A stretch of DNA of 24,273 bases. It comes from an archaeon. Its GTDB lineage: Archaea; Iainarchaeota; Iainarchaeia; Iainarchaeales; CSSED10-239. The translations under genes and the position numbers were made by a program. The notes beneath the pieces were generated by a model that was not told where the DNA came from, did not search any database, and saw only the letters and a program-made list of their open reading frames with translations. The stretch is from positions 14,414 through 38,686 of the forward strand of contig DAOOON010000005.1 in the NCBI GenBank assembly GCA_035387745.1, written 5' to 3'. Positions 12,857-24,273 of the stretch are shown in pieces. Each line of letters begins with the position of its first letter. The stretch's first letter is position 1.

Positions 12857-13084
12857 TTATAATAAATCTAAGAATTCATCTTTTGAAAGTCTTAAGTCCT
12901 GTTTAATTATTTTATTCAAAAGTCCTTCAGGGACGGGCTTATTAGAATGCATTGGTATAACAACTAATCTGCCATCAGAATGAGAAAATATTTTGTGAGA
13001 TCCTTTTTGCCTTATTTCTTTAAAACCCAACTTTATTATGACTTTAGTTAGCTTTAAAGAAGAAACAATAGGAAGCTCACTCAT
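12857..13084 (-). CDS. hicA: HicA-family mRNA interferase toxin
   Basis: 75 aa. KLGFKEIRQKGSHKIFSHSDGRLVVIPMH is the typical HicA (YcfA-like) dsRBD-fold signature with the catalytic GSH. 4-nt overlap with the upstream hicB. Confidence 0.85.
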   Translation of the reverse strand: MSELPIVSSLKLTKVIIKLGFKEIRQKGSHKIFSHSDGRLVVIPMHSNKPVPEGLLNKIIKQDLRLSKDEFLDLL

Positions 13085-13305
13085 AATGTAACCCTTATCA
13101 TACCTAAAACATTATTATTCAATATTTTTGATTTTTCTTCTTTTTTAACTTCTAAATATAGAGAAATTGCTTCTTTCATATTTGTAATTAATTCTTCTAC
13201 AGTATCTCCAGTAGAATAACATCCTGGCAGATTAGGAACAGAACCATAATATTGTTTAGTTTCTTTATCTTCTTCAATTAAAACATCAAAAGAGTTATTT
13301 AACAT
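13081..13305 (-). CDS. hicB: HicB-family antitoxin (UPF0150-like)
   Basis: 74 aa. YYGSVPNLPGCYSTGDTVEELITNMKEAISLYLE is the classic HicB N-terminal domain signature. AGGTGG SD upstream. Confidence 0.85.
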   Translation of the reverse strand: MLNNSFDVLIEEDKETKQYYGSVPNLPGCYSTGDTVEELITNMKEAISLYLEVKKEEKSKILNNNVLGMIRVTL

Positions 13306-13342: not shown

Positions 13343-13465
13343 TTAAAGCTTTCTTTTTCTAAAAGAAGCATAGAAATAGGAGTCGGATTCCCTCCTCCCA
13401 GATTCGGTTGGGGAGGAACGAGTTATTGGTTCATTGTTAGAAGTTGGTGGATACTTCTCTTTCAT
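13343..13465 (-). CDS. int: Putative Int(N): N-terminal fragment of an integrase gene split by integration
   Basis: Not in the ORF track (40 codons). AAGGAG, a 9-nt spacer, then ATG at 13465. Encodes MKEKYPPTSNNEPITRSSPTESGRRESDSYFYASFRKRKL*. It reads from inside the element through the left att copy into flanking DNA. Its codon phase across the repeat is identical to that of the integrase ORF at the right att copy. Confidence 0.55.
   Translation of the reverse strand: MKEKYPPTSNNEPITRSSPTESGRRESDSYFYASFRKRKL
13387..13407. repeat. Left attachment-site copy (21-bp direct repeat)
   Basis: ATTCCCTCCTCCCAGATTCGG is identical to 24219..24239 in the same orientation. Confidence 0.85.
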
Positions 13466-13509
13466 TCTTACCAACTCCTTTTAGTTTATATTAATATTCT
13501 GATTGAAAG

Positions 13510-13544
13510 CTTTTATAAAAGTGTAGCTTGTGTAGGGAGTGTAT
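13510..13544 (-). promoter_or_regulatory. Candidate int promoter/operator: palindromic TATA-like element plus three 9-bp-spaced GTGTAG repeats
   Basis: CTTTTATAAAAG (13510..13521) is a perfect palindrome about 45-55 nt upstream of the Int(N) ATG on the minus strand. GTGTAG, GTGTAG and GTGTAT start at 13521, 13530 and 13539. Confidence 0.35.
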
Positions 13545-13555
13545 ACAAACTCAAG

Positions 13556-14737
13556 TTATCTGCACACTACATTTATTATTTTTTGAATATCAGCATATTT
13601 TTCATAATCGCAAATTAATTTCCCCTTATTAAATTCAGAAGAATTACTAAACCATAAATTAACCACACCTTTAGAATAACACGCACAAATTAAAGTATAC
13701 AGTTGATTAGATTGATAATATAATTCTGATTTCTTACGATAAAGTCTATCAACATCTTTATCTCCACTGGTAAACTCTAAAGCAATAGGGGGATGAACTG
13801 TTTTTAATTTACACATATCTTCTAATTCTTCATTACTTCTTGATGCTTTATTTATATATATTTTATATTGGTCTATATCTGAAGTAAAATAATCATATAA
13901 TTTGTGTTTGTCTTTAAGTAAAGCAATTATTTCGATTAATTTCCCCCTTATACTTTTTTTAAGTTCTATTTCTTTATTATATTCATATATTTTAGTAGAT
14001 AATTTTGCTCTTTCTTCTTCTAATTTGAGTAGCTTATTTTGAGAAGGTGTGTTTTTGGAGGTGTCATAATAAAATGTATTACTACATTCTCCACGCAATT
14101 TATTTACTTGCTCATCTATTTTGTTGTATTCTTTAATATCTGGGCATTCTTCTAAGTATATAGATAAAGGAGCATAATTTGTGGTATAGAATAAATCTAT
14201 TTTTGTTATTAGTTTTTCTTTTTTTCCTTCTGTAATTGCAGGAAATATACTTTTGGAATCTTGTTCTTTAATATTATCACTTAAAGTATCCAAAACCAAT
14301 TTTATAAAATCAATAGGATATTTCTGATTTAATAAATCAAATATATCATAAAATTCATTTAAATTTAAAGTTCTATGCAAAATTATATTTTGCGCTAAAT
14401 CAAATCTATTTTTTTTAATTAGATTTTTAGCATAAAGTATTTGATTTTCATCAAATGCTCGTTTATAGTAATAAATCATATCATTTCCATTTACCAGAAT
14501 ATCTAAATCAAAAGCTTTCTTGAATTTAGTTGCTTTCAATTTATCAAATGTGTCCTTATCTGTTGCCTTAAACCAACGTTCAATTATATCTCTCGCACGT
14601 TCTTCTGAAATATCATTAGTGCTATTAAACTTTGAGATTATCAAATCAGATAAATCATTTTTCGTACAATAAGTCTTTTCTTTTATTGTTTTTTCAATAA
14701 AAGGGTATATTTCTTCTTTTGCATCCATACATTCCAC
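13556..14737 (-). CDS. Hypothetical protein (element orphan, 393 aa)
   Basis: Long ORF with no recognised motif. The tracked start is GTG inside an AGGTGG SD, so the ATG at 14728 (MDAKEE...) is the more likely start. Confidence 0.6.
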   Translation of the reverse strand: MECMDAKEEIYPFIEKTIKEKTYCTKNDLSDLIISKFNSTNDISEERARDIIERWFKATDKDTFDKLKATKFKKAFDLDILVNGNDMIYYYKRAFDENQILYAKNLIKKNRFDLAQNIILHRTLNLNEFYDIFDLLNQKYPIDFIKLVLDTLSDNIKEQDSKSIFPAITEGKKEKLITKIDLFYTTNYAPLSIYLEECPDIKEYNKIDEQVNKLRGECSNTFYYDTSKNTPSQNKLLKLEEERAKLSTKIYEYNKEIELKKSIRGKLIEIIALLKDKHKLYDYFTSDIDQYKIYINKASRSNEELEDMCKLKTVHPPIALEFTSGDKDVDRLYRKKSELYYQSNQLYTLICACYSKGVVNLWFSNSSEFNKGKLICDYEKYADIQKIINVVCR

Positions 14738-14936
14738 CTTTATTTGCTTCCAAACTACTATAAAAGTCTGGAGTATTTTTATTATTATTAAATAATTACG
14801 ACCCTAAATGCTTATAAATAGTGCGTTTTATTGGAGCGATAAACCACTCCTATGCTGTTTAAATAAGCAGTTAAAAATCGTTTAGTGCAATATTATGTAA
14901 TAATACCAGAAAACAACAAAAAGGAGAATAAGAAAT

Positions 14937-15179
14937 ATGTCAGAAAGAAAATCGATAGAAGGGACGATATTATCAATATCAAATAAAGTCAATCCAAAGG
15001 GGGTGCCATATTCAATATATAAGATTTCTACTCTTGAAGGAAAAGAGTTAGACTTGTTTCAATGGAATAACAATTTTAGATTATTGAATAAGTTATGTAG
15101 ATTTGAAATAGAATCCAATACAAAAGATAACAAAGAGTATAACTCAATAATTGAAATCAAAGAGGTGAAGAAAGAATGA
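14937..15179 (+). CDS. Small hypothetical protein (beta-rich, possibly OB-fold-like)
   Basis: 80 aa with AGGAG SD upstream. First gene of a tightly packed plus-strand operon. The OB-fold idea comes only from an alternating beta-strand pattern. Confidence 0.5.
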   Translation: MSERKSIEGTILSISNKVNPKGVPYSIYKISTLEGKELDLFQWNNNFRLLNKLCRFEIESNTKDNKEYNSIIEIKEVKKE

Positions 15180-15451
15180 AAGTATATGAACTTAAGGATA
15201 CGACCCCGTATCCTAAACTTAAACACGATAATACTGTTTTTGAATTAAAGACACAAAGCGATTTTGAACAGGCAATCTTGGACAATGATGGGGAAATTTT
15301 TATAGAAGATACTAAATGTTATCTTCTAACTAAAAATAATAGGTGTTATGTATTGTTTTACAAAGATAAAGGACCAATAGTAAGAATGTTGAAAGATAGA
15401 ATGGATGGGGGGAACAGCAATGACAACAATAGAAGAAATATTAGCAAGTAA
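15176..15451 (+). CDS. Small hypothetical protein
   Basis: 91 aa with GAGGTG SD. ATGA overlap with the preceding gene, and it overlaps the start of the next gene. Confidence 0.5.
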   Translation: MKVYELKDTTPYPKLKHDNTVFELKTQSDFEQAILDNDGEIFIEDTKCYLLTKNNRCYVLFYKDKGPIVRMLKDRMDGGNSNDNNRRNISK

Positions 15452-16982
15452 TCCTACTCAGTATTCTAATTTATCTATGGGAATCAAAGATGGTTTATTC
15501 TATTATGGTAAAATGGTTGAACATAAAGGACAACTATTAGAGATGATGGTCTTGTCTAATAGACAACTCTTAACTAATTACAGTAGTTTAAACACAAAAA
15601 CAGATAAAAGACCTAATGAAATAAATAATTTTGGTATATTCTATCAAGATTTACCAATAAACATTGCCAATAACGACTGGTCCAACGATAGCATTACCAA
15701 ATTTATTAGTTCTAATAATAAATTAATGAACAAAAAAGAAGTTTACAATAAAGTAAAAGAACAGATAACTAAATATATGGATTTATATGATGAAAGAATA
15801 AGTTCTATGGTTGCTTGTTGGTGTATGGGCACATATATCTATAATCTATTTTCAGGATATGGGTATATACTGCTTACAAGCCAGAAGGATTCAGGAAAAA
15901 GTAAATTACTAAAAATCATTGGACAACTTTCAAGAAATAGTATCTATCTAAGTTCTCCAAGCGAGTCTGTTTTATTTAGAATGATAAATGGAAATAGACC
16001 TACTTTACTTCTTGATGATTTTGAAACATTAAAGAACGAAGAAAGAACACACTATATCTTGCAAATACTTAAGATTGGTATAGATGAAGATGGGGCAATT
16101 CCAAGAAATGAAAAGTATAAGGATACTTTTGTTCCAAAAAACTATAATTGTTTTTGTCCTAAAGCATTAACAAATACTTGCTCTCTTGACCCTATTACCA
16201 TAAGTCGTTGTATAACTATTAATTTACTTCCAACGAATACAGAAAAGGGTAAACTAAAACCAAATAAAAGAGATTTAATCTGGCAAGAAATAAGAGATGA
16301 TTTGCATATATTGATAATGGAGAATTATCAAGAAATAATTGATATATACAATAACGAATCTTTTGGAGACTTTAATTCAAGACAATTAGATACCACTAAA
16401 GGATTGTTATCTATTGCAAAGTTTATTGATGATTCAGTTTATCAAGAAGTTTCTGAATTTCTAAAAGAATCTTTTAAAGATAGAGACCTACAAGACCTCA
16501 GTTCAGATTGGGAATACTTATTATTTAAGCAACTTTATGAAAAAGTGCCAAGTCCAAGATGGTGTTCTACAAAAGAGATGAATGAATGGTTAAAAGAGGT
16601 CGCAATTCCTACAGATTATAATAAAGGATTTAATCAATATATTGGTTTTGTTTTGAGTAAATTATCTTCATTATTCCCAAAACAAAGACATAATGATGGA
16701 ATTATGTATTTGATATCTCCAAAAAGTGTCCAAGAATATATGAGTTTAAAGAAGTATCCTTGCACCTTAGAGGGTTCACAGGATACACAACCTACACTTG
16801 ATTTCAAAGATGAACCATTTAGGGAATTAAAAAATGAAATTATGGATACTTGTGTAAATTGTAATCAAAGAACCTACGTTAAATATACTTCTAAAGTAGT
16901 AAAGGGTAGAAACATTTGTGAAGACTGTGTAAAGAGTGAAGCCAAAAGGAAGGGTAAAGAACTATTAGATAGTATGTATTGA
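15405..16982 (+). CDS. P-loop NTPase, DUF3631-like; putative element replication/helicase-type ATPase with C-terminal zinc ribbon
   Basis: Walker A-like SQKDSGKSK, then SPSESVLFRMINGNRPTLLLDDFE (Walker B-like). The layout recalls DUF3631/SF3-type ATPases of integrative elements. C-terminal CVNC-x20-CEDC. The likely true start is the ATG at 15420 (MTTIEE...), preceded by a GGGGGG SD. Confidence 0.55.
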   Translation: MGGTAMTTIEEILASNPTQYSNLSMGIKDGLFYYGKMVEHKGQLLEMMVLSNRQLLTNYSSLNTKTDKRPNEINNFGIFYQDLPINIANNDWSNDSITKFISSNNKLMNKKEVYNKVKEQITKYMDLYDERISSMVACWCMGTYIYNLFSGYGYILLTSQKDSGKSKLLKIIGQLSRNSIYLSSPSESVLFRMINGNRPTLLLDDFETLKNEERTHYILQILKIGIDEDGAIPRNEKYKDTFVPKNYNCFCPKALTNTCSLDPITISRCITINLLPTNTEKGKLKPNKRDLIWQEIRDDLHILIMENYQEIIDIYNNESFGDFNSRQLDTTKGLLSIAKFIDDSVYQEVSEFLKESFKDRDLQDLSSDWEYLLFKQLYEKVPSPRWCSTKEMNEWLKEVAIPTDYNKGFNQYIGFVLSKLSSLFPKQRHNDGIMYLISPKSVQEYMSLKKYPCTLEGSQDTQPTLDFKDEPFRELKNEIMDTCVNCNQRTYVKYTSKVVKGRNICEDCVKSEAKRKGKELLDSMY

Positions 16983-17011
16983 TTTTTCAAAAACGAACTT
17001 AGGAGATTAAT

Positions 17012-17446
17012 ATGGCAAGTACAAAAGAAGGTAAAGAGATAAGCAAGATGAATGCTGTAAAAAATGGGTTATACTTAAAGTTTACAGACTTTTTTCCCTG
17101 TAATTTATGTATTAACAGAGAGAAATGTTCTGATTTTATTCCTGGAGGTTCTTGCTCTATTGATTCTGAATTGTTCAATCAATTAGTTACTACTGAGATA
17201 GATGAATTAAAAGTATTAGACCAATTGATTAACTACAATATGGTTAGACTATCAAGAGCAACAGAACAATCAAGAAACAGACCAGACCATATCGAATTAA
17301 GTAGGATATCTGCAGAAATAAGAAATCTTATTCAAGCAAGGTTTATAATAAAAAGAAGGATAGAAGGTGAAAAAGAATATGCACGAACTAAAGTATTGCA
17401 ACCAATGTCCGACCAGAGCCAATTGCATTTATTTCAAGAAAAATAA
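17012..17446 (+). CDS. Hypothetical 4-Cys protein (paralogous motif with the next gene)
   Basis: AGGAG SD. Contains CNLCINREKCSDFIPGGSCSID, i.e. CNxCxxRxxCxxFx5CxxD. Confidence 0.55.
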   Translation: MASTKEGKEISKMNAVKNGLYLKFTDFFPCNLCINREKCSDFIPGGSCSIDSELFNQLVTTEIDELKVLDQLINYNMVRLSRATEQSRNRPDHIELSRISAEIRNLIQARFIIKRRIEGEKEYARTKVLQPMSDQSQLHLFQEK

Positions 17447-17669
17447 TTTCTGTGAAAGAGACCAAATGATTAGTGAAGACATTTATGGATTCAAAAAAAC
17501 CAGCATAGACAAATGGTATTCTTTAGTTAATTTAGATAGAACTGAAGATAAAAATAAAGCCAAATTCTATAAGATGGTCAATAAAGAAGTAAAAGAACTT
17601 ATACAAGATATACAAGAGCAGATAGCAGAAGAAAAAGAAAACGAGGATGAAAAAAATGCAAGACTTTAA
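17367..17669 (+). CDS. Hypothetical 4-Cys protein overlapping the previous gene out of frame
   Basis: The tracked start is GTG. The ATG at 17379 sits 8-10 nt after AAGGTGA and is the likelier start. Contains CNQCPTRANCIYFKKNNFCERD, the same CNxCxxRxxCxxFx5CxxD spacing as 17012..17446. Confidence 0.5.
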   Translation: MKKNMHELKYCNQCPTRANCIYFKKNNFCERDQMISEDIYGFKKTSIDKWYSLVNLDRTEDKNKAKFYKMVNKEVKELIQDIQEQIAEEKENEDEKNARL

Positions 17670-18006
17670 AAAATTAAAAATTTGGCAGTTAGGAAGAGAG
17701 TTTACTAAAGATATTTATGATATTACAGAACACTTCCCAAAACACGAGTTTCATTCAATGACCAACCAGCTCAGAAGAGCATCTTACTCAATACCTTCGA
17801 ACATTGCTGAAGGTTGTGGGAAAAGTAGTCAAAAAGAATTTGGAAGATATCTTTCTATTGTTAGTGGGTCGATAAAAGAATGTGAATGCTTTCTTATTCT
17901 TTCAAAAGACTTAGAATATATAACTAACAAAGAATTTAATGAATTAAATGGAAAATTAGAAATAATTGGAAAGATGTGTAATAAACTATTAATAAAAATA
18001 AATTAA
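17647..18006 (+). CDS. Four-helix-bundle protein (23S rRNA intervening-sequence protein / Avd-like family)
   Basis: KIWQLGREFTKDIYDIT..FPKHEFHSMTNQLRRASYSIPSNIAEGCGKSSQKEFGRYLSIVSGSIKECECFL is the characteristic signature of this family. The start may be the ATG at 17656 (GAGGA SD 9 nt upstream). Confidence 0.8.
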   Translation: MKKMQDFKKLKIWQLGREFTKDIYDITEHFPKHEFHSMTNQLRRASYSIPSNIAEGCGKSSQKEFGRYLSIVSGSIKECECFLILSKDLEYITNKEFNELNGKLEIIGKMCNKLLIKIN

Positions 18007-18359
18007 CTATTTACATATTGTTTTATATAAGTATAATCTGATTTTATTTTGCCAAATTCTTTATCTGCATTTTTCCAATCTGGTGGGCAATATCGGTATG
18101 ATTCGCTTATTGTTCTTAAATGTCTATATGCTTTATAGATTTGATTAGCATTTTTACAAATAAATTCTTCTCTTTCTGGATGAGTTCCTGGCTTTTGTAA
18201 ATTAGGAAATTTATTAAGCACAAAAAAATTTACCCAATGGACTGCAGAATAAAACAAAATTATTGATGACCAAGCCTTACAATTAGATTCGGAATCTTTA
18301 GCAATTTGTTCATTGTGTTTTGCAAGGTCTGAAAAATCATATTTATTCAATATTATCAC
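18003..18359 (-). CDS. Small helical protein, HEPN-like (tentative); third gene of a 3-gene cassette
   Basis: 118 aa. The GTG start overlaps the upstream stop (TAGTG). The layout ...ILFYSAVHWVNFFV...KPGTHPEREEF...ISESYRYCPPD resembles classical HEPN domains (TH loop and Y..RYP C-terminal motif). A clean Rx4-6H motif is not present. Confidence 0.4.
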   Translation of the reverse strand: MIILNKYDFSDLAKHNEQIAKDSESNCKAWSSIILFYSAVHWVNFFVLNKFPNLQKPGTHPEREEFICKNANQIYKAYRHLRTISESYRYCPPDWKNADKEFGKIKSDYTYIKQYVNS

Positions 18360-18730
18360 TATTTAATTAGTGCTTTCGCATTTTCTGAAATTTGGTGTAT
18401 AAAATAAGAGTTATCCGAAAAAACATTAAATTCAAATTTTATTTTTTCGTCTTTAAATCTTTCCCTTAATTCTAATTCTAAGTCATAAATCTTATCTCTA
18501 CTATCATAATCGTTTGGGTCAATTAATGTCCAAAATCTAATTACATTTCTATCATTCATAACATACAATTTTTTTACAAATGGTAATGAACTAACTAAAT
18601 GAAAATAAAATTTAATTGCATATACCTTTGTAATAATAGTAATTGGATTATATAATTGTTTATTTATCCCAATATAACACTCATCTATTAATCCCAAAGT
18701 ATTTGTGTTTGCTTGTTTATTAATATACAT
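18359..18730 (-). CDS. Small alpha/beta protein, possibly a degenerate minimal-nucleotidyltransferase-like partner; second gene of the cassette
   Basis: 123 aa. KKLYVMNDRNVIRFWTLIDPNDYDSRDKIYDLELELRERF..IKFEFNVF has the strand-helix-strand pattern of MNT-type antitoxins. It lacks the GS...DxD catalytic signature. Confidence 0.35.
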   Translation of the reverse strand: MYINKQANTNTLGLIDECYIGINKQLYNPITIITKVYAIKFYFHLVSSLPFVKKLYVMNDRNVIRFWTLIDPNDYDSRDKIYDLELELRERFKDEKIKFEFNVFSDNSYFIHQISENAKALIK

Positions 18731-18737
18731 ATAATCC

Positions 18738-19103
18738 CTATTTTGTTTGTGCTTTCAAATCTAATGTTTTTATTTGTTCAGATATTTTTACTAAATTCTC
18801 TGATGCTAATTTAAGTTTATCTGCATAATCTTTTTTCTCAGATAATGACAAATTAAGTAAGTTCTTATCAATAGTAGCCATCTTTAAATTGAAAATTAAA
18901 TCTTTATATATCTCTGAAAGTTCTGGAGAATCGTTTTTTATTAGTGAAATTAATAATTCTTCATCATTTAATACTTCGCTCATTTTCTTAAGCTTTTCAG
19001 AATCATTAGATTCTAATATATAAACTTCATTAATAAAGCTACTAATTATTTTTAATAATTTAGAATATGCAGTAATAAAATCAATAAGTATTTCTTTGTC
19101 CAT
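18738..19103 (-). CDS. Small all-helical hypothetical protein; first gene of the cassette
   Basis: 121 aa with an ATG start, preceded by a TATA-rich 160-bp gap. Its stop lies 7 nt before the next gene's start. Confidence 0.45.
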   Translation of the reverse strand: MDKEILIDFITAYSKLLKIISSFINEVYILESNDSEKLKKMSEVLNDEELLISLIKNDSPELSEIYKDLIFNLKMATIDKNLLNLSLSEKKDYADKLKLASENLVKISEQIKTLDLKAQTK

Positions 19104-19264
19104 ATGTAATCTATATAGTTATTAAATAAGTTAATAAATATAACTATTTTTAAAGGCAATTTACCCCTACTATATATATAGTATATATAGAAAAATATAT
19201 AAATAGAAAATTAACACATTATAATTTACTTTCATAACTCTGAGTTATAATACCCATTATATAA

Positions 19265-21733
19265 TCAATATCTAAATAATTTATTTGCACTTTCAACTAA
19301 ATCAATTTTTCTTCTATCCAATTCCAATATTTCATTTATCTTTTTAGTATTTTCATCAATAATCCTTTGGTCAAATAATGGGATTTCTATGTCTTTTAAA
19401 CGCTCTAAGTTTAAATGAGGAATTGTTGATGCTATTACTGTTCTTCTTAAAGATTGATATAGTCCAATTTCTTTAGTAATTAACACCGAAAAGATATATT
19501 CTGGAGTTATTGTAAGTTTGTATTTTTCTTTAATATAAGATATACAACTTTTCTTTAATCTACATTTTAAAATTCCTGAAGAAATTAAGAAATTAGTATT
19601 TGTAGAAGCAATTGCAAACATCCCTATTTTCCCATCTTTAGTAAACAATATATCTTTTTCCTTTATTTCGAAATTTATTTGATTAAATAAATCTTTAGAA
19701 AGATATAAATCAGCAGTTCTATTAATTGTATAATTTACTAAATCTGAGGTTCTAATAAATGGAATATCTGTTTCTTTTTTAAAGATATATTCAATATAAT
19801 TATCACTGCCAATTTCGATACCTTTTTTAAAATCAAATAGTTCTCCAAGAGTAATTGTTGGAATCCCCTTAGATTTCAAATTTTGAATTGGATATATATA
19901 TCTTGGGAATAAATATTTAGGAATCCATAAATCATAATCTTTTATTTGAGAGAATGTAATATTAAAGTAGCTATCTTTTGATTTATATTTTTTAGGTTCT
20001 TTTTTCCAAAGTTTATATTCCTCTGATACATTCTTTATGTCGTCGATTTCATTTTCTTTGCCTCTTCTATCGTGCCCACAATTTTCTATAACTGACATAA
20101 ATATGGGGTAATCTTTTGGAATTTTATTTAATGGTTGCTTCTCTAATATTAAAATTGTTGTTTTGGTAGAGGTATTTGGCATAAATGTTTCCAATGGAAC
20201 ATCAATTATAGCATTTATTTTTGTGTGTTCACAAATATATTGCCTCACATAACCTAAGCTTTCATTACCGAATATTCCATCAGGTAATACAATCGCCATT
20301 TGTCCTCCATCCTTAAGTAATTGCAAACATCTCTCCACAAAAAGTATTTGAGGTGCTTCTTTATCTTTTAATTTACCGATTTCCCACTTATTATTTAATT
20401 TCCATTTGTGACCTAATGCATATTGTTTTAATTTATCTTCTCCACGAACAGGAATCTTACTTCCAAATGGTGGATTAGTTAAAAGAATACTAAAATCCCC
20501 CAAATGAACTTTTGTTTTTGTGGTGGTATTCCAATGATTTGGATTTTCTAAACTATCTTCACAGAATATTCCACTTTTACCATCTCCAATTATTGCCATA
20601 TATGCTTTTGCAACTTTCGATAAAAAATAGTCCTTATCTATTCCTCTTATTCTATTAAGTGCAACTTCCATTTTTTCTTCTTGAAGATTATTTTTATTCC
20701 AATGATACTTTTCTCCTTCAGCATCTAATTTCTTCCAAACGTGTCTTAAAGATTCTATCAAAAAGCCACCACTTCCACAAGCGGGGTCTATGATTAAATC
20801 TTCATCATTCGGGTCTAAGATATCTACCATCATTTTTACTACATTACGTGGAGTGAAGAATTGACCTTGCCCTCCTTTTAATGCGTGCCCAATAAATGTT
20901 TCAAAAGCATCTGCAATTATATCTCTCTCTGCTTCAATAAGACAATAATTCTGTAACTCTCCTACTACATAAGCAACAGAATTAGAATCTAATGTTATTG
21001 TATCGTTATCATCCAATACTTCTTTATATTTTCTTTTTACCTTATTAAATAAATCTAAAATTCTTTTTTTAACGGTTTCTGTATCTTCATCCACTCCTGC
21101 TCTAAATGTGACAATTTCATTAGGTTCTGTAAATCTTTCATCATAAATTTTACAGAAAATCAAATTAATAAGTTGCTGAGCCAATACTTCATCTCTTGTT
21201 GCTCCAATGGTATTAGCAAATAAATGATTTCTTATTGCTTTAAATGTTGCTTTTAAGTTGTGAGTGGGCTTTAAATCTTTACGTTTAAATCTACCTATAT
21301 CTTCAATTCTTTGTCCATATCGAGGAATATTGGGTATTTCTTCAAATTCAATTTTACCTGATTTTTCAATTTTTCTTAAAAATAATCTTTCGTCTCCATT
21401 AAACCAAACTCCAAGATATGCTTTAGAGAATCTTAAATAATCTTGAAGCTGAGTTTTCCCATCTTTTCTATTTTTTTTCTTACACTCTACAATAATATAA
21501 ATTTCATCTTCTTGTTTTTTACTATTTGGGAAAATTGCAATATCTATGGGATATTCTTTTTTTGTATCTGATGGTCTAATTTTCACTCTAAATTGTGGTC
21601 TGGTTTGGATATTTACTTTGGGATACCCATAATCTTCAACCAATTGTTTAGAAAATGTTTGTACCGCATCTATTTCTTCTGGTGTTGCTTTAACTTTTAT
21701 CCCTGAAATATAATCCTCTATATATTCTGCCAT
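19265..21733 (-). CDS. Fused restriction-modification enzyme: PD-(D/E)xK nuclease-like N-domain + gamma-class N6-adenine DNA methyltransferase + single HsdS-like target-recognition domain (Type IIG/IIB-like)
   Basis: N-terminal PIDIAIF...IYIIVECKKK (D...ExK, HsdR-N-like). FFTPRNVVKMMVDIL, IIDPACGSGGFL (motif I) and LTNPPFG (motif IV). C-terminal ~240 aa with TLGELFDFKKGIEIGS, typical of specificity-subunit TRDs. Confidence 0.8.
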   Translation of the reverse strand: MAEYIEDYISGIKVKATPEEIDAVQTFSKQLVEDYGYPKVNIQTRPQFRVKIRPSDTKKEYPIDIAIFPNSKKQEDEIYIIVECKKKNRKDGKTQLQDYLRFSKAYLGVWFNGDERLFLRKIEKSGKIEFEEIPNIPRYGQRIEDIGRFKRKDLKPTHNLKATFKAIRNHLFANTIGATRDEVLAQQLINLIFCKIYDERFTEPNEIVTFRAGVDEDTETVKKRILDLFNKVKRKYKEVLDDNDTITLDSNSVAYVVGELQNYCLIEAERDIIADAFETFIGHALKGGQGQFFTPRNVVKMMVDILDPNDEDLIIDPACGSGGFLIESLRHVWKKLDAEGEKYHWNKNNLQEEKMEVALNRIRGIDKDYFLSKVAKAYMAIIGDGKSGIFCEDSLENPNHWNTTTKTKVHLGDFSILLTNPPFGSKIPVRGEDKLKQYALGHKWKLNNKWEIGKLKDKEAPQILFVERCLQLLKDGGQMAIVLPDGIFGNESLGYVRQYICEHTKINAIIDVPLETFMPNTSTKTTILILEKQPLNKIPKDYPIFMSVIENCGHDRRGKENEIDDIKNVSEEYKLWKKEPKKYKSKDSYFNITFSQIKDYDLWIPKYLFPRYIYPIQNLKSKGIPTITLGELFDFKKGIEIGSDNYIEYIFKKETDIPFIRTSDLVNYTINRTADLYLSKDLFNQINFEIKEKDILFTKDGKIGMFAIASTNTNFLISSGILKCRLKKSCISYIKEKYKLTITPEYIFSVLITKEIGLYQSLRRTVIASTIPHLNLERLKDIEIPLFDQRIIDENTKKINEILELDRRKIDLVESANKLFRY

Positions 21734-21788
21734 TCATTCATCCCCATATTAAAATTATACTATATTATAGAACAAAAGAGAATAAAAA

Positions 21789-21806
21789 GGTAACCATTTG
21801 GTAACC
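21789..21806. promoter_or_regulatory. Candidate operator: GGTAACC x2 at 11-bp spacing in the divergent RM / wHTH intergenic region
   Basis: GGTAACC at 21789..21795 and 21800..21806. The 20-mer AGGTAACCATTTGGTAACCT is also a near-palindrome (8 of 10 half-site positions match). Confidence 0.4.
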
Positions 21807-21859
21807 TAATTTGAACTTGATTTCTTAAAATAAAACAATCTTATTCTATAGGTATTGCT

Positions 21860-22135
21860 ATGAAAAAAGACATTGCAGAATTAGTATCTTTTATTGTAAG
21901 AGGGTCTAATAGAATAATTATACTTAATTGTTTAGCTTTAGAAGAACTAACGCCTTCTCAAATAAAAAAGAAAACAAACCTATATCTTAGTCATATCTCA
22001 AGAGTTATACAAGAGCTTTTGGATAGAAAACTAATTATTTGTATTAATCCAGATTCTCCGATGGTTAAATTTTATGCTATAACTAAAAAAGGTAAAACTA
22101 TTATAGAATTAGTGAGGAAATATAAAAAAGAGTAG
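21860..22135 (+). CDS. Winged helix-turn-helix transcriptional regulator (ArsR/MarR-like small archaeal-type wHTH)
   Basis: 91 aa. LTPSQIKKKTNLYLSHISRVIQELLDRKLI (HTH) followed by KFYAITKKGK (wing). Divergent from the RM gene. Confidence 0.7.
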   Translation: MKKDIAELVSFIVRGSNRIIILNCLALEELTPSQIKKKTNLYLSHISRVIQELLDRKLIICINPDSPMVKFYAITKKGKTIIELVRKYKKE

Positions 22136-22139
22136 GATA

Positions 22140-23156
22140 TTACTTAGAAGTAGTATGCATTTTTAGTTTTTGTATCTCTAATAAATATTCTATTGTAGAT
22201 TCCACATATGAAAAATATAATTTTAACACATTATAATCTATGTCTTCTTCTTGTTTATGGTCTTTATCCTTTAGTTTCTTGTATATTCTGGTATATACTA
22301 AATATTCAATTGTGCTTTCTATCTCTTGAGAAATTATCATTTTCTTTTGAATCTTCCTCATATTATCTTCAGGTTTATGTAATCCACAAGACTCATCTGT
22401 TGTTTTCTTGGAAAACTCTTCAAAAAAATGTTCTATTACTCCAATTAATTTGTGTATGGTCTTTTCTTTATCCCCCATTTCTAAATATCTATAGCCTTCT
22501 ATTAAAAGTTCAGACACTTTTTCATATCCATATTCTGATAATTTATTAGAAATTGGAACATTAATATAATATTCTAATGATTTTGGTTCGGAAATAACTG
22601 TAGTTGAAATTATAGTTGATAATTCATTTAAAAATTTAATATTCTCAAATAATATTTTAGAATACTCGAAATTAGATATATCTGATTTACGATTTAATTG
22701 AGTAATTTGAAAATAAATTACTGGCATTGATATGACTTCTATTATTATCCTGGATTCTTTACTATCCCACTTAAAAAGTAAATCAATATTATATGGCAAT
22801 TCAGCTCTTATACCTTTTAACCAATTATAATATAGTTTTTGTTCATCAGATATGGTTTTTACTTTTAATAAAGATTTAAGTTTATATTTCAAATCTGGAG
22901 TATATACTCTTTTCATACTATAATGTATAACTGTAGAGAATAACTTGGGATTAGAATGGATTTTGCTATAACTATGTTCTAAAACATCTACCATAGTAAT
23001 ATCATCAGTAAGATAACCCACTTTTTCCATATAATTCTTTAATTCTAATTGAATTCCATTATATAATTCTGCAAATTTTTGGTCAGAAGTATCTTTACAA
23101 GGATATCCAAAGATTCCTTTAACTATAAGGTTATTTACATTTACCATATTTATCAC
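22140..23156 (-). CDS. Hypothetical protein (element orphan, 338 aa)
   Basis: Long ORF with no recognised catalytic motif. Mixed N-terminal domain and helical C-terminal third. The tracked start is GTG, with an alternative ATG at 23147. Confidence 0.6.
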   Translation of the reverse strand: MINMVNVNNLIVKGIFGYPCKDTSDQKFAELYNGIQLELKNYMEKVGYLTDDITMVDVLEHSYSKIHSNPKLFSTVIHYSMKRVYTPDLKYKLKSLLKVKTISDEQKLYYNWLKGIRAELPYNIDLLFKWDSKESRIIIEVISMPVIYFQITQLNRKSDISNFEYSKILFENIKFLNELSTIISTTVISEPKSLEYYINVPISNKLSEYGYEKVSELLIEGYRYLEMGDKEKTIHKLIGVIEHFFEEFSKKTTDESCGLHKPEDNMRKIQKKMIISQEIESTIEYLVYTRIYKKLKDKDHKQEEDIDYNVLKLYFSYVESTIEYLLEIQKLKMHTTSK

Positions 23157-23211
23157 TAAATATATATTAATATCGTAAATTTATTAAATAGATTATTAAA
23201 GACAAACTAAA

Positions 23212-24201
23212 TCATACAATCCCTCCAAGATTTAATATAGCACTATCTAAATCTCTTCCACTTAAGTGAACATATCTACTTGCCATATCACTGGCTTGTG
23301 TCCATCCAAAGAATTGTTTTAATTGTGCTTCTGTTAAATGGTTTGCAAGGTATGTTGCTCTGCTGTGCCTGAAAAGATGAGGATTTGATTTTTTTTCTAT
23401 ATTGCTTTTCTTGAAAGTTTCATTAAGTGTCTTTCTTACTACAGAATAACTTGGTATTTCTTTTGGTCCTCTGCCTTGTTGATTTCTCCTTATCATCTTA
23501 CACCATACATTGCTTTCACTGTCTTCACCAAATGGATGTTCTTTTATCCATTCTTTAAGATAGGGAACTGATTTGATTATTGGAATTCTTCTTTGTCCCG
23601 TTTTTCCATTAACTAAAATAGAGGATATCTTTTCTCCAAAGGTTATGTGCTTAATTTTAAGTGTAAGCATCTCTCCAATTCTTGCTCCTGACTCATACAA
23701 TAAGTAAATAAATGCTTTGTCTCTTGTAAACTTTGCAGTAGCAACTAATTTCAAAACTTCTTCTTCGGTCAATAACTCTTCAGGTAAAATATTACTTTTA
23801 GAATCCTTAACTTTAATCCAAGAAACAATCTTTGGAGCAGTTTCATCATCTCCAAGTAGCCACTTATAGAATCTCTTTAGAATTATCTTATAGTCTGATT
23901 TAGTCCAAAAAGCATAGTCTCTTTGCTCAATAGTAAACATCAAATATTCAATATCTTGCTTTGTGGCTATAGCAAAAGGTATTTGTATTACATTAGACAT
24001 ATCTCTAAGCATATAGATAGACTTAGATAGTCTAATTGACTTAATTCCTTGAGCTTTCATAGATATAACATAGTCAAGTATTGCATTTCTGTTCTCTTCA
24101 ACAACCTCTAAATTGTTTTGTAGAGTAAAAATAGCTCTGCTTAGTCTGTGTTCAGTCCTGTATATGTCGTCGGGACCACTTACATTACAAACTTCTAACA
24201 A
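23212..24201 (-). CDS. int: Tyrosine recombinase/integrase, catalytic (Int(C)) portion; ORF stays open upstream to 24255 through the att repeat
   Basis: ESGARIGEM (Arg I), HLFRHSRATYLA (HxxR) and MASRYVHLS (catalytic Tyr), with a SAM-like core-binding N-domain. The tracked start is a TTG with no SD, and the next in-frame Met is 47 codons in. The frame continues upstream as PVDPQSESGRRECTRKSS. Confidence 0.85.
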   Translation of the reverse strand: MLEVCNVSGPDDIYRTEHRLSRAIFTLQNNLEVVEENRNAILDYVISMKAQGIKSIRLSKSIYMLRDMSNVIQIPFAIATKQDIEYLMFTIEQRDYAFWTKSDYKIILKRFYKWLLGDDETAPKIVSWIKVKDSKSNILPEELLTEEEVLKLVATAKFTRDKAFIYLLYESGARIGEMLTLKIKHITFGEKISSILVNGKTGQRRIPIIKSVPYLKEWIKEHPFGEDSESNVWCKMIRRNQQGRGPKEIPSYSVVRKTLNETFKKSNIEKKSNPHLFRHSRATYLANHLTEAQLKQFFGWTQASDMASRYVHLSGRDLDSAILNLGGIV

Positions 24202-24218
24202 AGAACTCTTTCGAGTGC

Positions 24219-24239
24219 ATTCCCTCCTCCCAGATTCGG
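24219..24239. repeat. Right attachment-site copy (21-bp direct repeat)
   Basis: ATTCCCTCCTCCCAGATTCGG is identical to 13387..13407. It lies 18 nt upstream of the tracked integrase start. Confidence 0.85.
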
Positions 24240-24273
24240 ACTGGGGATCTACCGGTCACTGCCTTTTTCTGTC

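Follow-up and report, generated by a model that had tools for sequence, protein, structure and literature searches.

The described systems closest to the locus reported here are gene pairs (dyads) in which a minimal nucleotidyltransferase (MNT) gene lies 5' of a HEPN gene and is coupled to it (PMC3710099). The accounts cited here for the type VII toxin-antitoxin (TA) systems (PMC7641770, PMC11586414) describe HEPN toxins of the DUF86 type that carry an Rx4-6H motif, with (oligo)AMPylation by the MNT enzyme as the means of neutralisation. In the AF0298-like HEPN-T proteins and in AbiV, the Arg of this motif is kept and its His is absent; a second conserved His, from an insert between helices 2 and 3, has been proposed as an alternative active site (Anantharaman et al. 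2013, PMC3710099). The same work reports that HEPN proteins without the motif can still be toxic and that HEPN-T genes cluster with restriction-modification (R-M, here RM) operons. Makarova et al. 2009 (PMC2701414) suggested speculatively that MNT-HEPN could require a DNA-binding protein as third component. We analysed 24,273 nt of contig DAOOON010000005.1 (positions 14,414 to 38,686; assembly GCA_035387745.1, Iainarchaeota), hereafter the window, in which a triad of small coupled genes, named P1, P2 and P3, lies on an integrative element next to an RM gene. Our preferred reading, to which we assign a probability of about one half, is that this cassette is a diverged MNT-HEPN-type TA or abortive-infection-like module whose MNT-like partner is catalytically dead, the function of the module being inferred. 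Its P2-P3 core is probably an ancient two-gene module and a diverged relative of the MNT-HEPN dyad. A preliminary description of the window, made from the sequence alone, had presented the cassette as a three-component system unlike any described; this was overstated, as the same P2-P3 dyad also occurs in bacteria, there without P1.

All three genes lie on the minus strand: P1, the first gene of the operon (18738..19103, 121 aa, ATG start), P2 (18359..18730, 123 aa, ATG start) and P3 (18003..18359, 118 aa, GTG start). The P1 stop codon TAG is followed by 7 nt (GGATTAT, read directly from the sequence) and the ATG of P2, and one base is common to the P2 stop and the P3 start (TAGTG), so that the three co-oriented genes, the 7-nt gap and the 1-nt overlap of the preliminary description are all found in both the open reading frame (ORF) list and the sequence. 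The TATA-rich upstream region of about 160 bp mentioned there measures 161 nt (19104..19264, minus strand) at 16.8% G+C. Within this region we find a 12-nt inverted repeat (19114-19125 / 19131-19142, 92% complementary) and a TATA-like A/T-rich block 25-39 nt 5' of the P1 ATG, the latter also kept in a more distant triad lineage (L015, see below). From these sequence features, 19104-19264 is a candidate archaeal promoter and operator with putative promoter function. A scan for sigma-70 promoters and terminators gave nothing above chance, the sigma-70 model being unsuited to an archaeon, and Rfam and tRNA scans of the window gave no match. The predicted isoelectric points (pI) run from acidic to basic along the triad: 4.95 for P1, 7.8 (neutral) for P2 and 8.9 for P3.

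In pairwise comparisons of the triad genes with those of two related elements (L003 and L005), the ratio of nonsynonymous to synonymous substitution rates (dN/dS) was 0.03-0.17 in eight of nine cases, at dS of 0.65 or less; the ninth, P2 of L003 against L005, gave 0.40 at a dS of only 0.10. The three genes are real and under purifying selection. Chance ORFs, or unrelated genes that happen to be adjacent, might be suspected in DNA of about 25% G+C, which favours long spurious ORFs, and none of the three proteins directly matches a curated family. The conservation and selection data refute this explanation, which we consider highly improbable: besides the low dN/dS values, distant loci with 32-61% identity share the gene order and coupling, P2 and P3 gave confident models, and relatives are counted in the hundreds. 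Separately, we observed that P1 is nearest to its L005 counterpart (96% nt identity) but P3 is nearer to L003 (88% versus 84% nt), a mosaic pattern which suggests recombination within the operon among related elements.

The evidence is strongest for P3. Its AlphaFold2 (AF2) model, built on an alignment of 108 sequences, has a mean predicted local distance difference test (pLDDT) score of 93.9 and five helices (9-23, 28-50, an insert helix 60-70, 72-90 and 92-117). This is the up-and-down four-helix bundle of HEPN proteins, with the insert placed between core helices 2 and 3. Searched with Foldseek against the PDB, the top eight matches are all HEPN or HEPN-T-clade structures with a best template-modelling (TM) score of 0.70: 2hsb (AF_0298, TM 0.70), 1ufb (TT1696), 1wol (ST0689), 1o3u (TM0613) and 4nqf, together with SsR10 (2q00 and 2jpu, a PaREP1-type protein). 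The sacsin HEPN domain and HepT follow at ranks 10 and 11. The E-values are weak (0.025 or worse), which is usual for helical bundles. An exhaustive profile search (1.84 billion entries) returned 87 representative relatives, nearly all of them stand-alone proteins of 115-130 aa; one of the 87, an 1850-aa repeat protein, was dismissed as a spurious repeat match. With P3 alone as query, a word-indexed search recovered just two close relatives; the P3-like family comprises about 262 proteins. The label "orphan" that the preliminary description gave to all three proteins thus holds for direct searches of Pfam, NCBIfam, PADLOC, PHROGs and PDB sequences, and does not hold for P3 once profiles are used. 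PF05168 (HEPN) is matched by 20 of 88 family members (best E 4.5e-6, below or near threshold) and YaaC by four of 88; one relative has a precomputed PF05168 match, and several are labelled "UPF0332 family" by JGI. As judged from its model and its family, P3 belongs to the HEPN domains of AF_0298-like HEPN-T type, and its HEPN-like character had been correctly suspected from the sequence.

The conserved residues tell the same story. W30, Y37, A39, H41, R89 and Y90 are invariant in the P3 family (108/108), and N16 (107/108), R63 (107/108) and H60 (106/108) are nearly so. The two stretches singled out earlier, GTHPER (residues 58-63) and SESYRYCPPD (residues 85-94), are present. In the model, core helix 3 (72-90) ends with R89, and the helix formed by the insert between helices 2 and 3 begins with H60. 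A His located 4-6 residues after R89, as in Rx4-6H, occurs in only 4 of 108 family members, the window protein reading RYCPPDW. The preliminary description was therefore right that a clean motif is missing, and wrong to see an anomaly in this, because an invariant Arg combined with an alternative His is the signature of the described AF0298-like subtype. P3 is a putative RNA-targeting effector or toxin, and the model offers H60, R63 and R89 (plus H41) as candidate active-site residues. AbiV of Lactococcus, which has been grouped with the AF0298-like HEPN-T proteins and has its alternative conserved His at the same position (PMC3710099), is described in the preprint cited here as an antiphage HEPN RNase that degrades rRNA (bioRxiv 10.1101/2024.05.05.592566). 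AbiV differs from P3 in being longer and in matching the P3 model weakly (9bj5, TM 0.28-0.39); its antitoxin is an RNA (type III) and not an MNT-like protein, and it has no equivalents of P1 or P2.

The AF2 model of P2 has a pLDDT of 80 (89-95 in the core) and the order helix-helix-strand-strand-helix-strand-(short helix)-strand. Six of its eight top Foldseek matches in the PDB are MNT antitoxins of HEPN-MNT pairs (7ae2_B, 8xeo_B, 5yep_A, 8xeh_E, 6m6v_A and 7aer_A), at E 5e-3 to 3e-2 and TM 0.39-0.51, E reaching 8e-2 when 2rff, at rank 24, is included; a search of viral structures gave nothing informative. The short helix that MNT proteins have between strands 1 and 2 is absent from the model. 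Neither catalytic element of the nucleotidyltransferases (NTases) is found: G[GS] occurs in none of 40 aligned family members, and there is no conserved DxD on strand 2, which is hydrophobic (VIRFWTL in the window). The acidic residues are confined to a hairpin turn, where the window protein has D60 only. The earlier suggestion of a minimal nucleotidyltransferase-like protein without G[GS] and DxD is upheld to this extent, at marginal significance for the fold. Profile alignment (hhalign) of the P2 family with a bona fide NTP_transf_2 protein gave a probability of 0.09, and the only traces in the family, both sub-threshold, link the L019 copy to DUF4269 (E 0.067) and the L015 copy to OAS1_C (E 0.071). 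The P2-like family comprises 205 members, none with a Pfam domain, some of which are tandem duplications of about 218 aa. We lean, with modest confidence, towards P2 being an MNT-derived pseudoenzyme, the alternative being an unrelated small alpha/beta fold. A ferredoxin fold of the AsnC/RAM kind, to which sequence searches gave weak matches, was considered and set aside as the less likely reading, since the MNT match ranks higher in Foldseek.

These properties govern the comparison with the type VII HepT-MntA systems of Shewanella, Aphanizomenon and Legionella. The triad shares with them the order of an MNT-like gene followed by a HEPN gene, the translational coupling and a HEPN protein as presumed effector, and it is their MntA/MNT antitoxins that match P2 best in structure. 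Unlike in those systems, P3 belongs to HEPN-T and lacks Rx4-6H, and P2 lacks the catalytic residues, so that enzymatic neutralisation is not expected. Because P2 fails the NTase motif tests, the module should not be filed as type VII HepT-MntA. In particular, with hG[GS] and DxD missing from P2, AMPylation of P3 in the way of MntA is not expected, and neutralisation would rather be by binding.

The association between P2 and P3 extends well beyond the window. A P2-like gene lies directly upstream of the P3-like gene in all ten lineages with readable context, archaeal and bacterial (the window group, L007 in part, L015, L019, L008, L011, L014, L025, L027 and L029). When an archaeal-only P2 hidden Markov model (HMM) was run against 459 ORFs, its top non-self matches were four bacterial genes directly 5' of P3-like genes (L029, E 7e-6; L011, 0.0016; L008, 0.0086; L027, 0.088); the upstream genes of L014 and L025 tie to the P2 family through L011. 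The MNT-like gene is always 5' of the HEPN gene, and both are tightly coupled and encode fewer than 150 aa: they overlap by 1 nt in the window and in L008 and by 8 nt in L015, and are separated by 7 nt in L019 and by 2-6 nt in L011, L014, L025, L027 and L029. In Chloroflexi-type contigs the P2-like gene is often one of the tandem duplications of about 218 aa, of which the family holds dozens, which suggests that P2 acts as a dimer. In the bacterial lineage L029 the dyad comes after N6_N4 methyltransferase genes. The cassette probably descends from HEPN-T-type MNT-HEPN dyads, that is, from the PF05168 group (COG2250, UPF0332; 2hsb, 1o3u, 1ufb, 1wol). It resembles these in the fold of P3, in the Arg/alternative-His logic, in having a coupled 5' partner, in protein sizes of 100-130 aa and in the clustering with RM operons known from the literature. 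It differs from them in that the window P3 is too diverged for PF05168, that P2 has neither similarity to NTP_transf_2 nor its motifs, and that the archaeal clade has an extra gene.

That extra gene, P1, encodes an acidic protein with no Gly, Arg, His, Trp or Cys, a single Pro and the periodicity of amphipathic helices, and on this basis is probably all-helical. Its dN/dS is 0.03-0.07. It has no match in Pfam, NCBIfam, PADLOC, PHROGs or PDB sequences, which agrees with the earlier remark that the first protein has no counterpart in canonical two-gene MNT-HEPN modules, and in hhalign comparisons its profile resembled neither the P3 family nor the four-helix-bundle protein encoded next to the triad. 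Homologues of P1 occur only within triads (61% identity in L015, 32% in L019). Profile scans found it in one genome among 185,579 GTDB species representatives, a metagenome-assembled genome (MAG) of an archaeon, and in one JGI metagenome contig. RefSeq assigns one P1 variant to "Methanoculleus sp." (WP_292559206.1), probably a binning artefact. A P1-HMM match to the element's own 100-aa K/E-rich ORF (E 3.6e-4 in the 459-ORF set) is probably compositional, and the name "nucleoside-triphosphatase THEP1" that JGI gives to the L015 homologue goes back to a sub-threshold match and is an artefact.

Two of the bacterial dyads carry a different first gene, encoding a beta-rich protein of 82-85 aa (L008 3257-3514 and L027 2383-2631); these two are 32% identical to each other, unrelated to P1 and without a family match, and others of the bacterial dyads have no third gene. 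As the third position varies in this way among dyads, P1 is best seen as a clade-specific addition, and it is probably a regulatory or adaptor component. Sets of three co-transcribed small genes, in which the third adds regulation or assistance to a TA pair, are familiar from omega-epsilon-zeta, PaaR-PaaA-ParE and the toxin-antitoxin-chaperone (TAC) systems. The triad has no homology to any of these, and P1 lacks their signatures: P1 and its two distant homologues gave no helix-turn-helix (HTH), ribbon-helix-helix (RHH) or SecB match in Pfam, NCBIfam or PDB sequences.

Co-occurrence of the three genes outside this locus, on which the preliminary description had made its proposal depend, is found in two distant lineages. 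The first (L015-L018) has genes of 119, 131 and 120 aa whose products are 61, 44 and 44% identical to P1, P2 and P3, placed after an HTH_45 gene, a 1017-aa MmeI-like type IIG enzyme and a 150-aa membrane protein. In the second (L019-L022), genes of 123, 121 and 117 aa (32, 33 and 41% identity) adjoin an asparaginase-like gene and giant ORFs. The gene order of the window is kept in both, with overlaps of 4-8 nt or gaps of 7 nt. The triad proteins of the nearer relatives L003 and L005 are 81-98% identical to those of the window. The full triad is rare and confined to a few low-GC archaeal-type contigs. None of P1, P2 and P3 matches Pfam, NCBIfam, PADLOC or PHROGs directly; PADLOC, including its NTase+HEPN candidate PDC-M05, gave no match for P1-P3 and ten relatives, apart from one relative weakly similar to PDC-M26A (E 0.0075). 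The P2 and P3 families each have no model of their own in Pfam, NCBIfam and PADLOC. In phmmer and hmmsearch runs against PDB sequences, with single proteins and family profiles, only chance matches appeared (a J-domain fragment, AsnC, designed coils), which we rejected.

The window is identical (100%) to an ENA metagenome contig (L001), and the triad is carried there by a 10.9-kb integrative element. Proteins encoded on the host side bear the NCBI name "MAG TPA: archaeon" and have close cluster mates from "Candidatus Diapherotrites archaeon", so that the host is taken to be an uncultured, DPANN-like archaeon of low G+C content. The element is bounded by a perfect 21-nt direct repeat, CCGAATCTGGGAGGAGGGAAT, read on the minus strand at 13387..13407 (left attachment site) and at 24219..24239 (right attachment site); this 21-mer occurs exactly twice in the window, where none is expected by chance. 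The right copy adjoins the tyrosine integrase gene (23212-24201), which lies inside the element. The related element in L003 has a corresponding pair of repeats at its ends, and the longer L003 repeat, GTTCGAATCTGGGAGGGGGGAT, resembles the 3' end of a tRNA; ARAGORN runs on the window, L003 and L024 gave no tRNA gene. Upstream of the triad operon lies the RM gene (19265..21733, minus strand), which encodes a single 822-aa chain with HSDR_N_2, N6_Mtase and specificity domains and is type IIG-like. It scores 431 bits against the NCBIfam model of the methyltransferase MAD2 from the methylation-associated defence system (MADS; cut-off 720), its C-terminus weakly resembles MAD5, and it may be a compact relative of MADS components. 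Divergent from it is a winged-helix gene (21860..22135, plus strand, 91 aa) with a weak HTH_45 match.

Comparison by blastn with the related elements shows backbone homology (86-95% nt) over 13389-19273 and 23212-24268. In place of the segment between, 19273-23212, with the RM gene, the HTH_45 gene and a gene for a 338-aa protein, L003 and L005 have a type III Mod/Res + DUF5655 cassette (slot positions L003 3387-9141 and L005 1533-7287), and the slot of L015 (43-3512) holds the 1017-aa MmeI-like enzyme as cargo. Since homology spans the upstream region of the triad and breaks at the end of the RM gene (about 19273), the triad belongs to the conserved frame and the RM gene to the exchangeable cargo. 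The HTH_45 gene and the triad bracket the variable slot, and the HTH_45 protein of the window is 82% identical to the L015 copy though the RM proteins are only 20% identical (48% to the HTH_45 proteins of L003 and L005). The slot looks like a defence-gene hotspot of archaeal integrative elements. The earlier statement that the triad lies beside an RM enzyme on a mobile element is correct as to the 822-aa gene and the 10.9-kb element, and it does not stand if the RM gene is taken as a fixed partner.

This exchange bears directly on an explanation modelled on PrrC, namely that the triad monitors or backs up the RM enzyme and frees its HEPN effector when an invader inhibits RM, with P1 and/or P2 as sensor. 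In three of the four archaeal triad lineages an RM cassette lies immediately upstream of the triad (an 822-aa type IIG-like enzyme, type III + DUF5655, or a 1017-aa MmeI-like enzyme), the bacterial dyad L029 comes after methyltransferase genes, the RM slot is framed as just described, and both the clustering of HEPN-T with RM operons and PrrC itself are precedents (PMC3710099). PrrC-EcoprrI likewise places a HEPN effector beside RM genes as a possible second line of defence (PMC3710099). PrrC differs in being a HEPN anticodon nuclease within a type I RM locus, a large ABC-ATPase-HEPN fusion tied physically to one RM enzyme, whereas P3 is a stand-alone protein of 118 aa with a partner of its own and variable RM neighbours. 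The triad remains the same (81-98% protein identity in L003/L005) across exchanges of the RM type, which makes a specific physical coupling as in PrrC-EcoprrI unlikely; the triad also has its own conserved upstream region, and no RM gene adjoins the L019 triad or most of the bacterial dyads. On balance a guard dedicated to the RM enzyme seems improbable to us.

Other genes of the element and its border deserve brief mention. In a 525-aa protein (15405-16982, plus strand), the match to the DUF5906 P-loop is weak and sub-threshold and that to the MCM P-loop weaker still (E 0.14); its C-terminus carries a Cys-rich motif, and a pattern scan of IMG/VR gave no relatives. It is probably the replication protein of the element. 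Convergent with P3 is a four-helix-bundle gene of the 23S_rRNA_IVP / bAvd-like type (17647..18006, plus strand, 119 aa; PF05635 E 3.6e-36, TIGR02436). The stop codons of the two genes overlap (TTAA, 18003-18006), so that the 3' ends of both transcripts must overlap. This gene is kept with the triad in L003, L005, L023 and L024 and does not lie beside the L015 or L019 triads; by hhalign its product has no profile similarity to P1 or P3. Just outside the left repeat, a HicA toxin / HicB antitoxin pair (12857-13084 and 13081-13305, both minus strand) is recognised from precomputed Pfam matches on the identical contig L001.

Several observations weigh against reading the cassette as a diverged TA or abortive-infection-like module. 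P3 toxicity, binding of P3 by P2 with the resulting neutralisation, RNase activity, the role of P1 and the biological function as a whole are all inferred. The window P3 itself has no Pfam match at E of 1 or less, PF05168 included, so that its link to this family is transitive only. The fold match of P2 is marginal, generic alpha/beta sandwiches scoring close behind the MNT antitoxins, and neither the window P2 nor 40 relatives could be connected to NTP_transf_2 by Pfam searches. At the turn between strands 1 and 2, the bacterial P2-like proteins have a group of acidic residues (S-E-D-D or N-D-G-D), and they may retain some metal or nucleotide chemistry. No PADLOC, NCBIfam or PHROG model matches the triad proteins or their relatives; tblastn of P3-like proteins found no relatives in PLSDB plasmids or INPHARED phages, and neither did P1 and P2 scans of IMG/VR. 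In the Chloroflexi-type contigs a methylmalonyl-CoA mutase gene always precedes the dyad, and this on separate contigs (L014 3341-4357; L025 and L026 3001-3669), a synteny more suggestive of stable inheritance of the pair than of a mobile TA.

The synteny and the absence from plasmid and phage collections would both suit a domesticated, non-toxic derivative of MNT-HEPN, in which neither partner is catalytic any longer and the two make up a regulatory complex that binds RNA or nucleotides, with P1 as an extra subunit. This complex would control, for example, the element's own genes or a host process and would serve neither addiction nor defence. Such a derivative would also account for a P2 without NTase motifs and a P3 without Rx4-6H, inactive HEPN regulators have precedents in MtlR and in MNT-fused HEPN (PMC3710099), and all three genes are under strong purifying selection. 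The polar set N16, H41, H60, R63, R89 and Y90 of P3, which corresponds to the alternative active site proposed for AF0298 and AbiV (PMC3710099), is nevertheless kept invariant or nearly so, which is not expected of a purely structural domain. Moreover, the archaeal triads reside on integrative elements beside RM cassettes, and the patchy and rare distribution (87 relatives of P3 in 1.84 billion; P1 in 1 of 185,579 genomes) is typical of conflict systems. We regard domestication as a rather unlikely account, one that still deserves some weight.

If the cassette is indeed a diverged TA or abortive-infection-like module, we envisage the following mode of action. R89 and H60, the alternative His, would form the active or RNA-binding site of P3, close to H41 and R63, and P2 would act like a type II antitoxin, keeping P3 inactive through stoichiometric binding. 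P1 would have been added upstream in a small archaeal clade and would serve in regulation or sensing. When freed from P2, P3 would bind or cleave RNA and so bring about cell arrest, which would stabilise the element (addiction) and/or act as an abortive-infection-type backup beside the exchangeable RM slot. We favour an addiction or abortive-infection role because the cassette is located on an integrative element next to three types of RM cassette, and one bacterial dyad next to methyltransferase genes. A bolder version, which we hold to be a long shot, makes P1-P2-P3 a tripartite HEPN system of DPANN-type elements: the dead MNT pseudoenzyme and the acidic helical protein would sense invasion, or loss or inhibition of RM, and release an AF0298/AbiV-type HEPN RNase, the triad and HTH_45 forming the fixed frame of the hotspot.

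What is new here are two unannotated families that form a conserved dyad, and a clade-specific third gene. To our knowledge, the sole established route of neutralisation in MNT-HEPN toxin-antitoxin systems is AMPylation of the toxin by the MNT enzyme. Against this background, a few hundred archaeal and bacterial dyads combine an MNT-like partner without catalytic motifs with a HEPN partner carrying an invariant alternative His/Arg set. The family therefore offers a test case for whether AF0298-type HEPN-T proteins are real RNases, how HEPN toxins are controlled without AMPylation, and what a third protein contributes. The swappable RM slot framed by conserved genes in a DPANN-like element should be useful for the study of archaeal defence hotspots. 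If the tripartite sensor version were true, an enzymatic type VII TA system would have evolved into a binding-based, sensor-equipped abortive-infection system.

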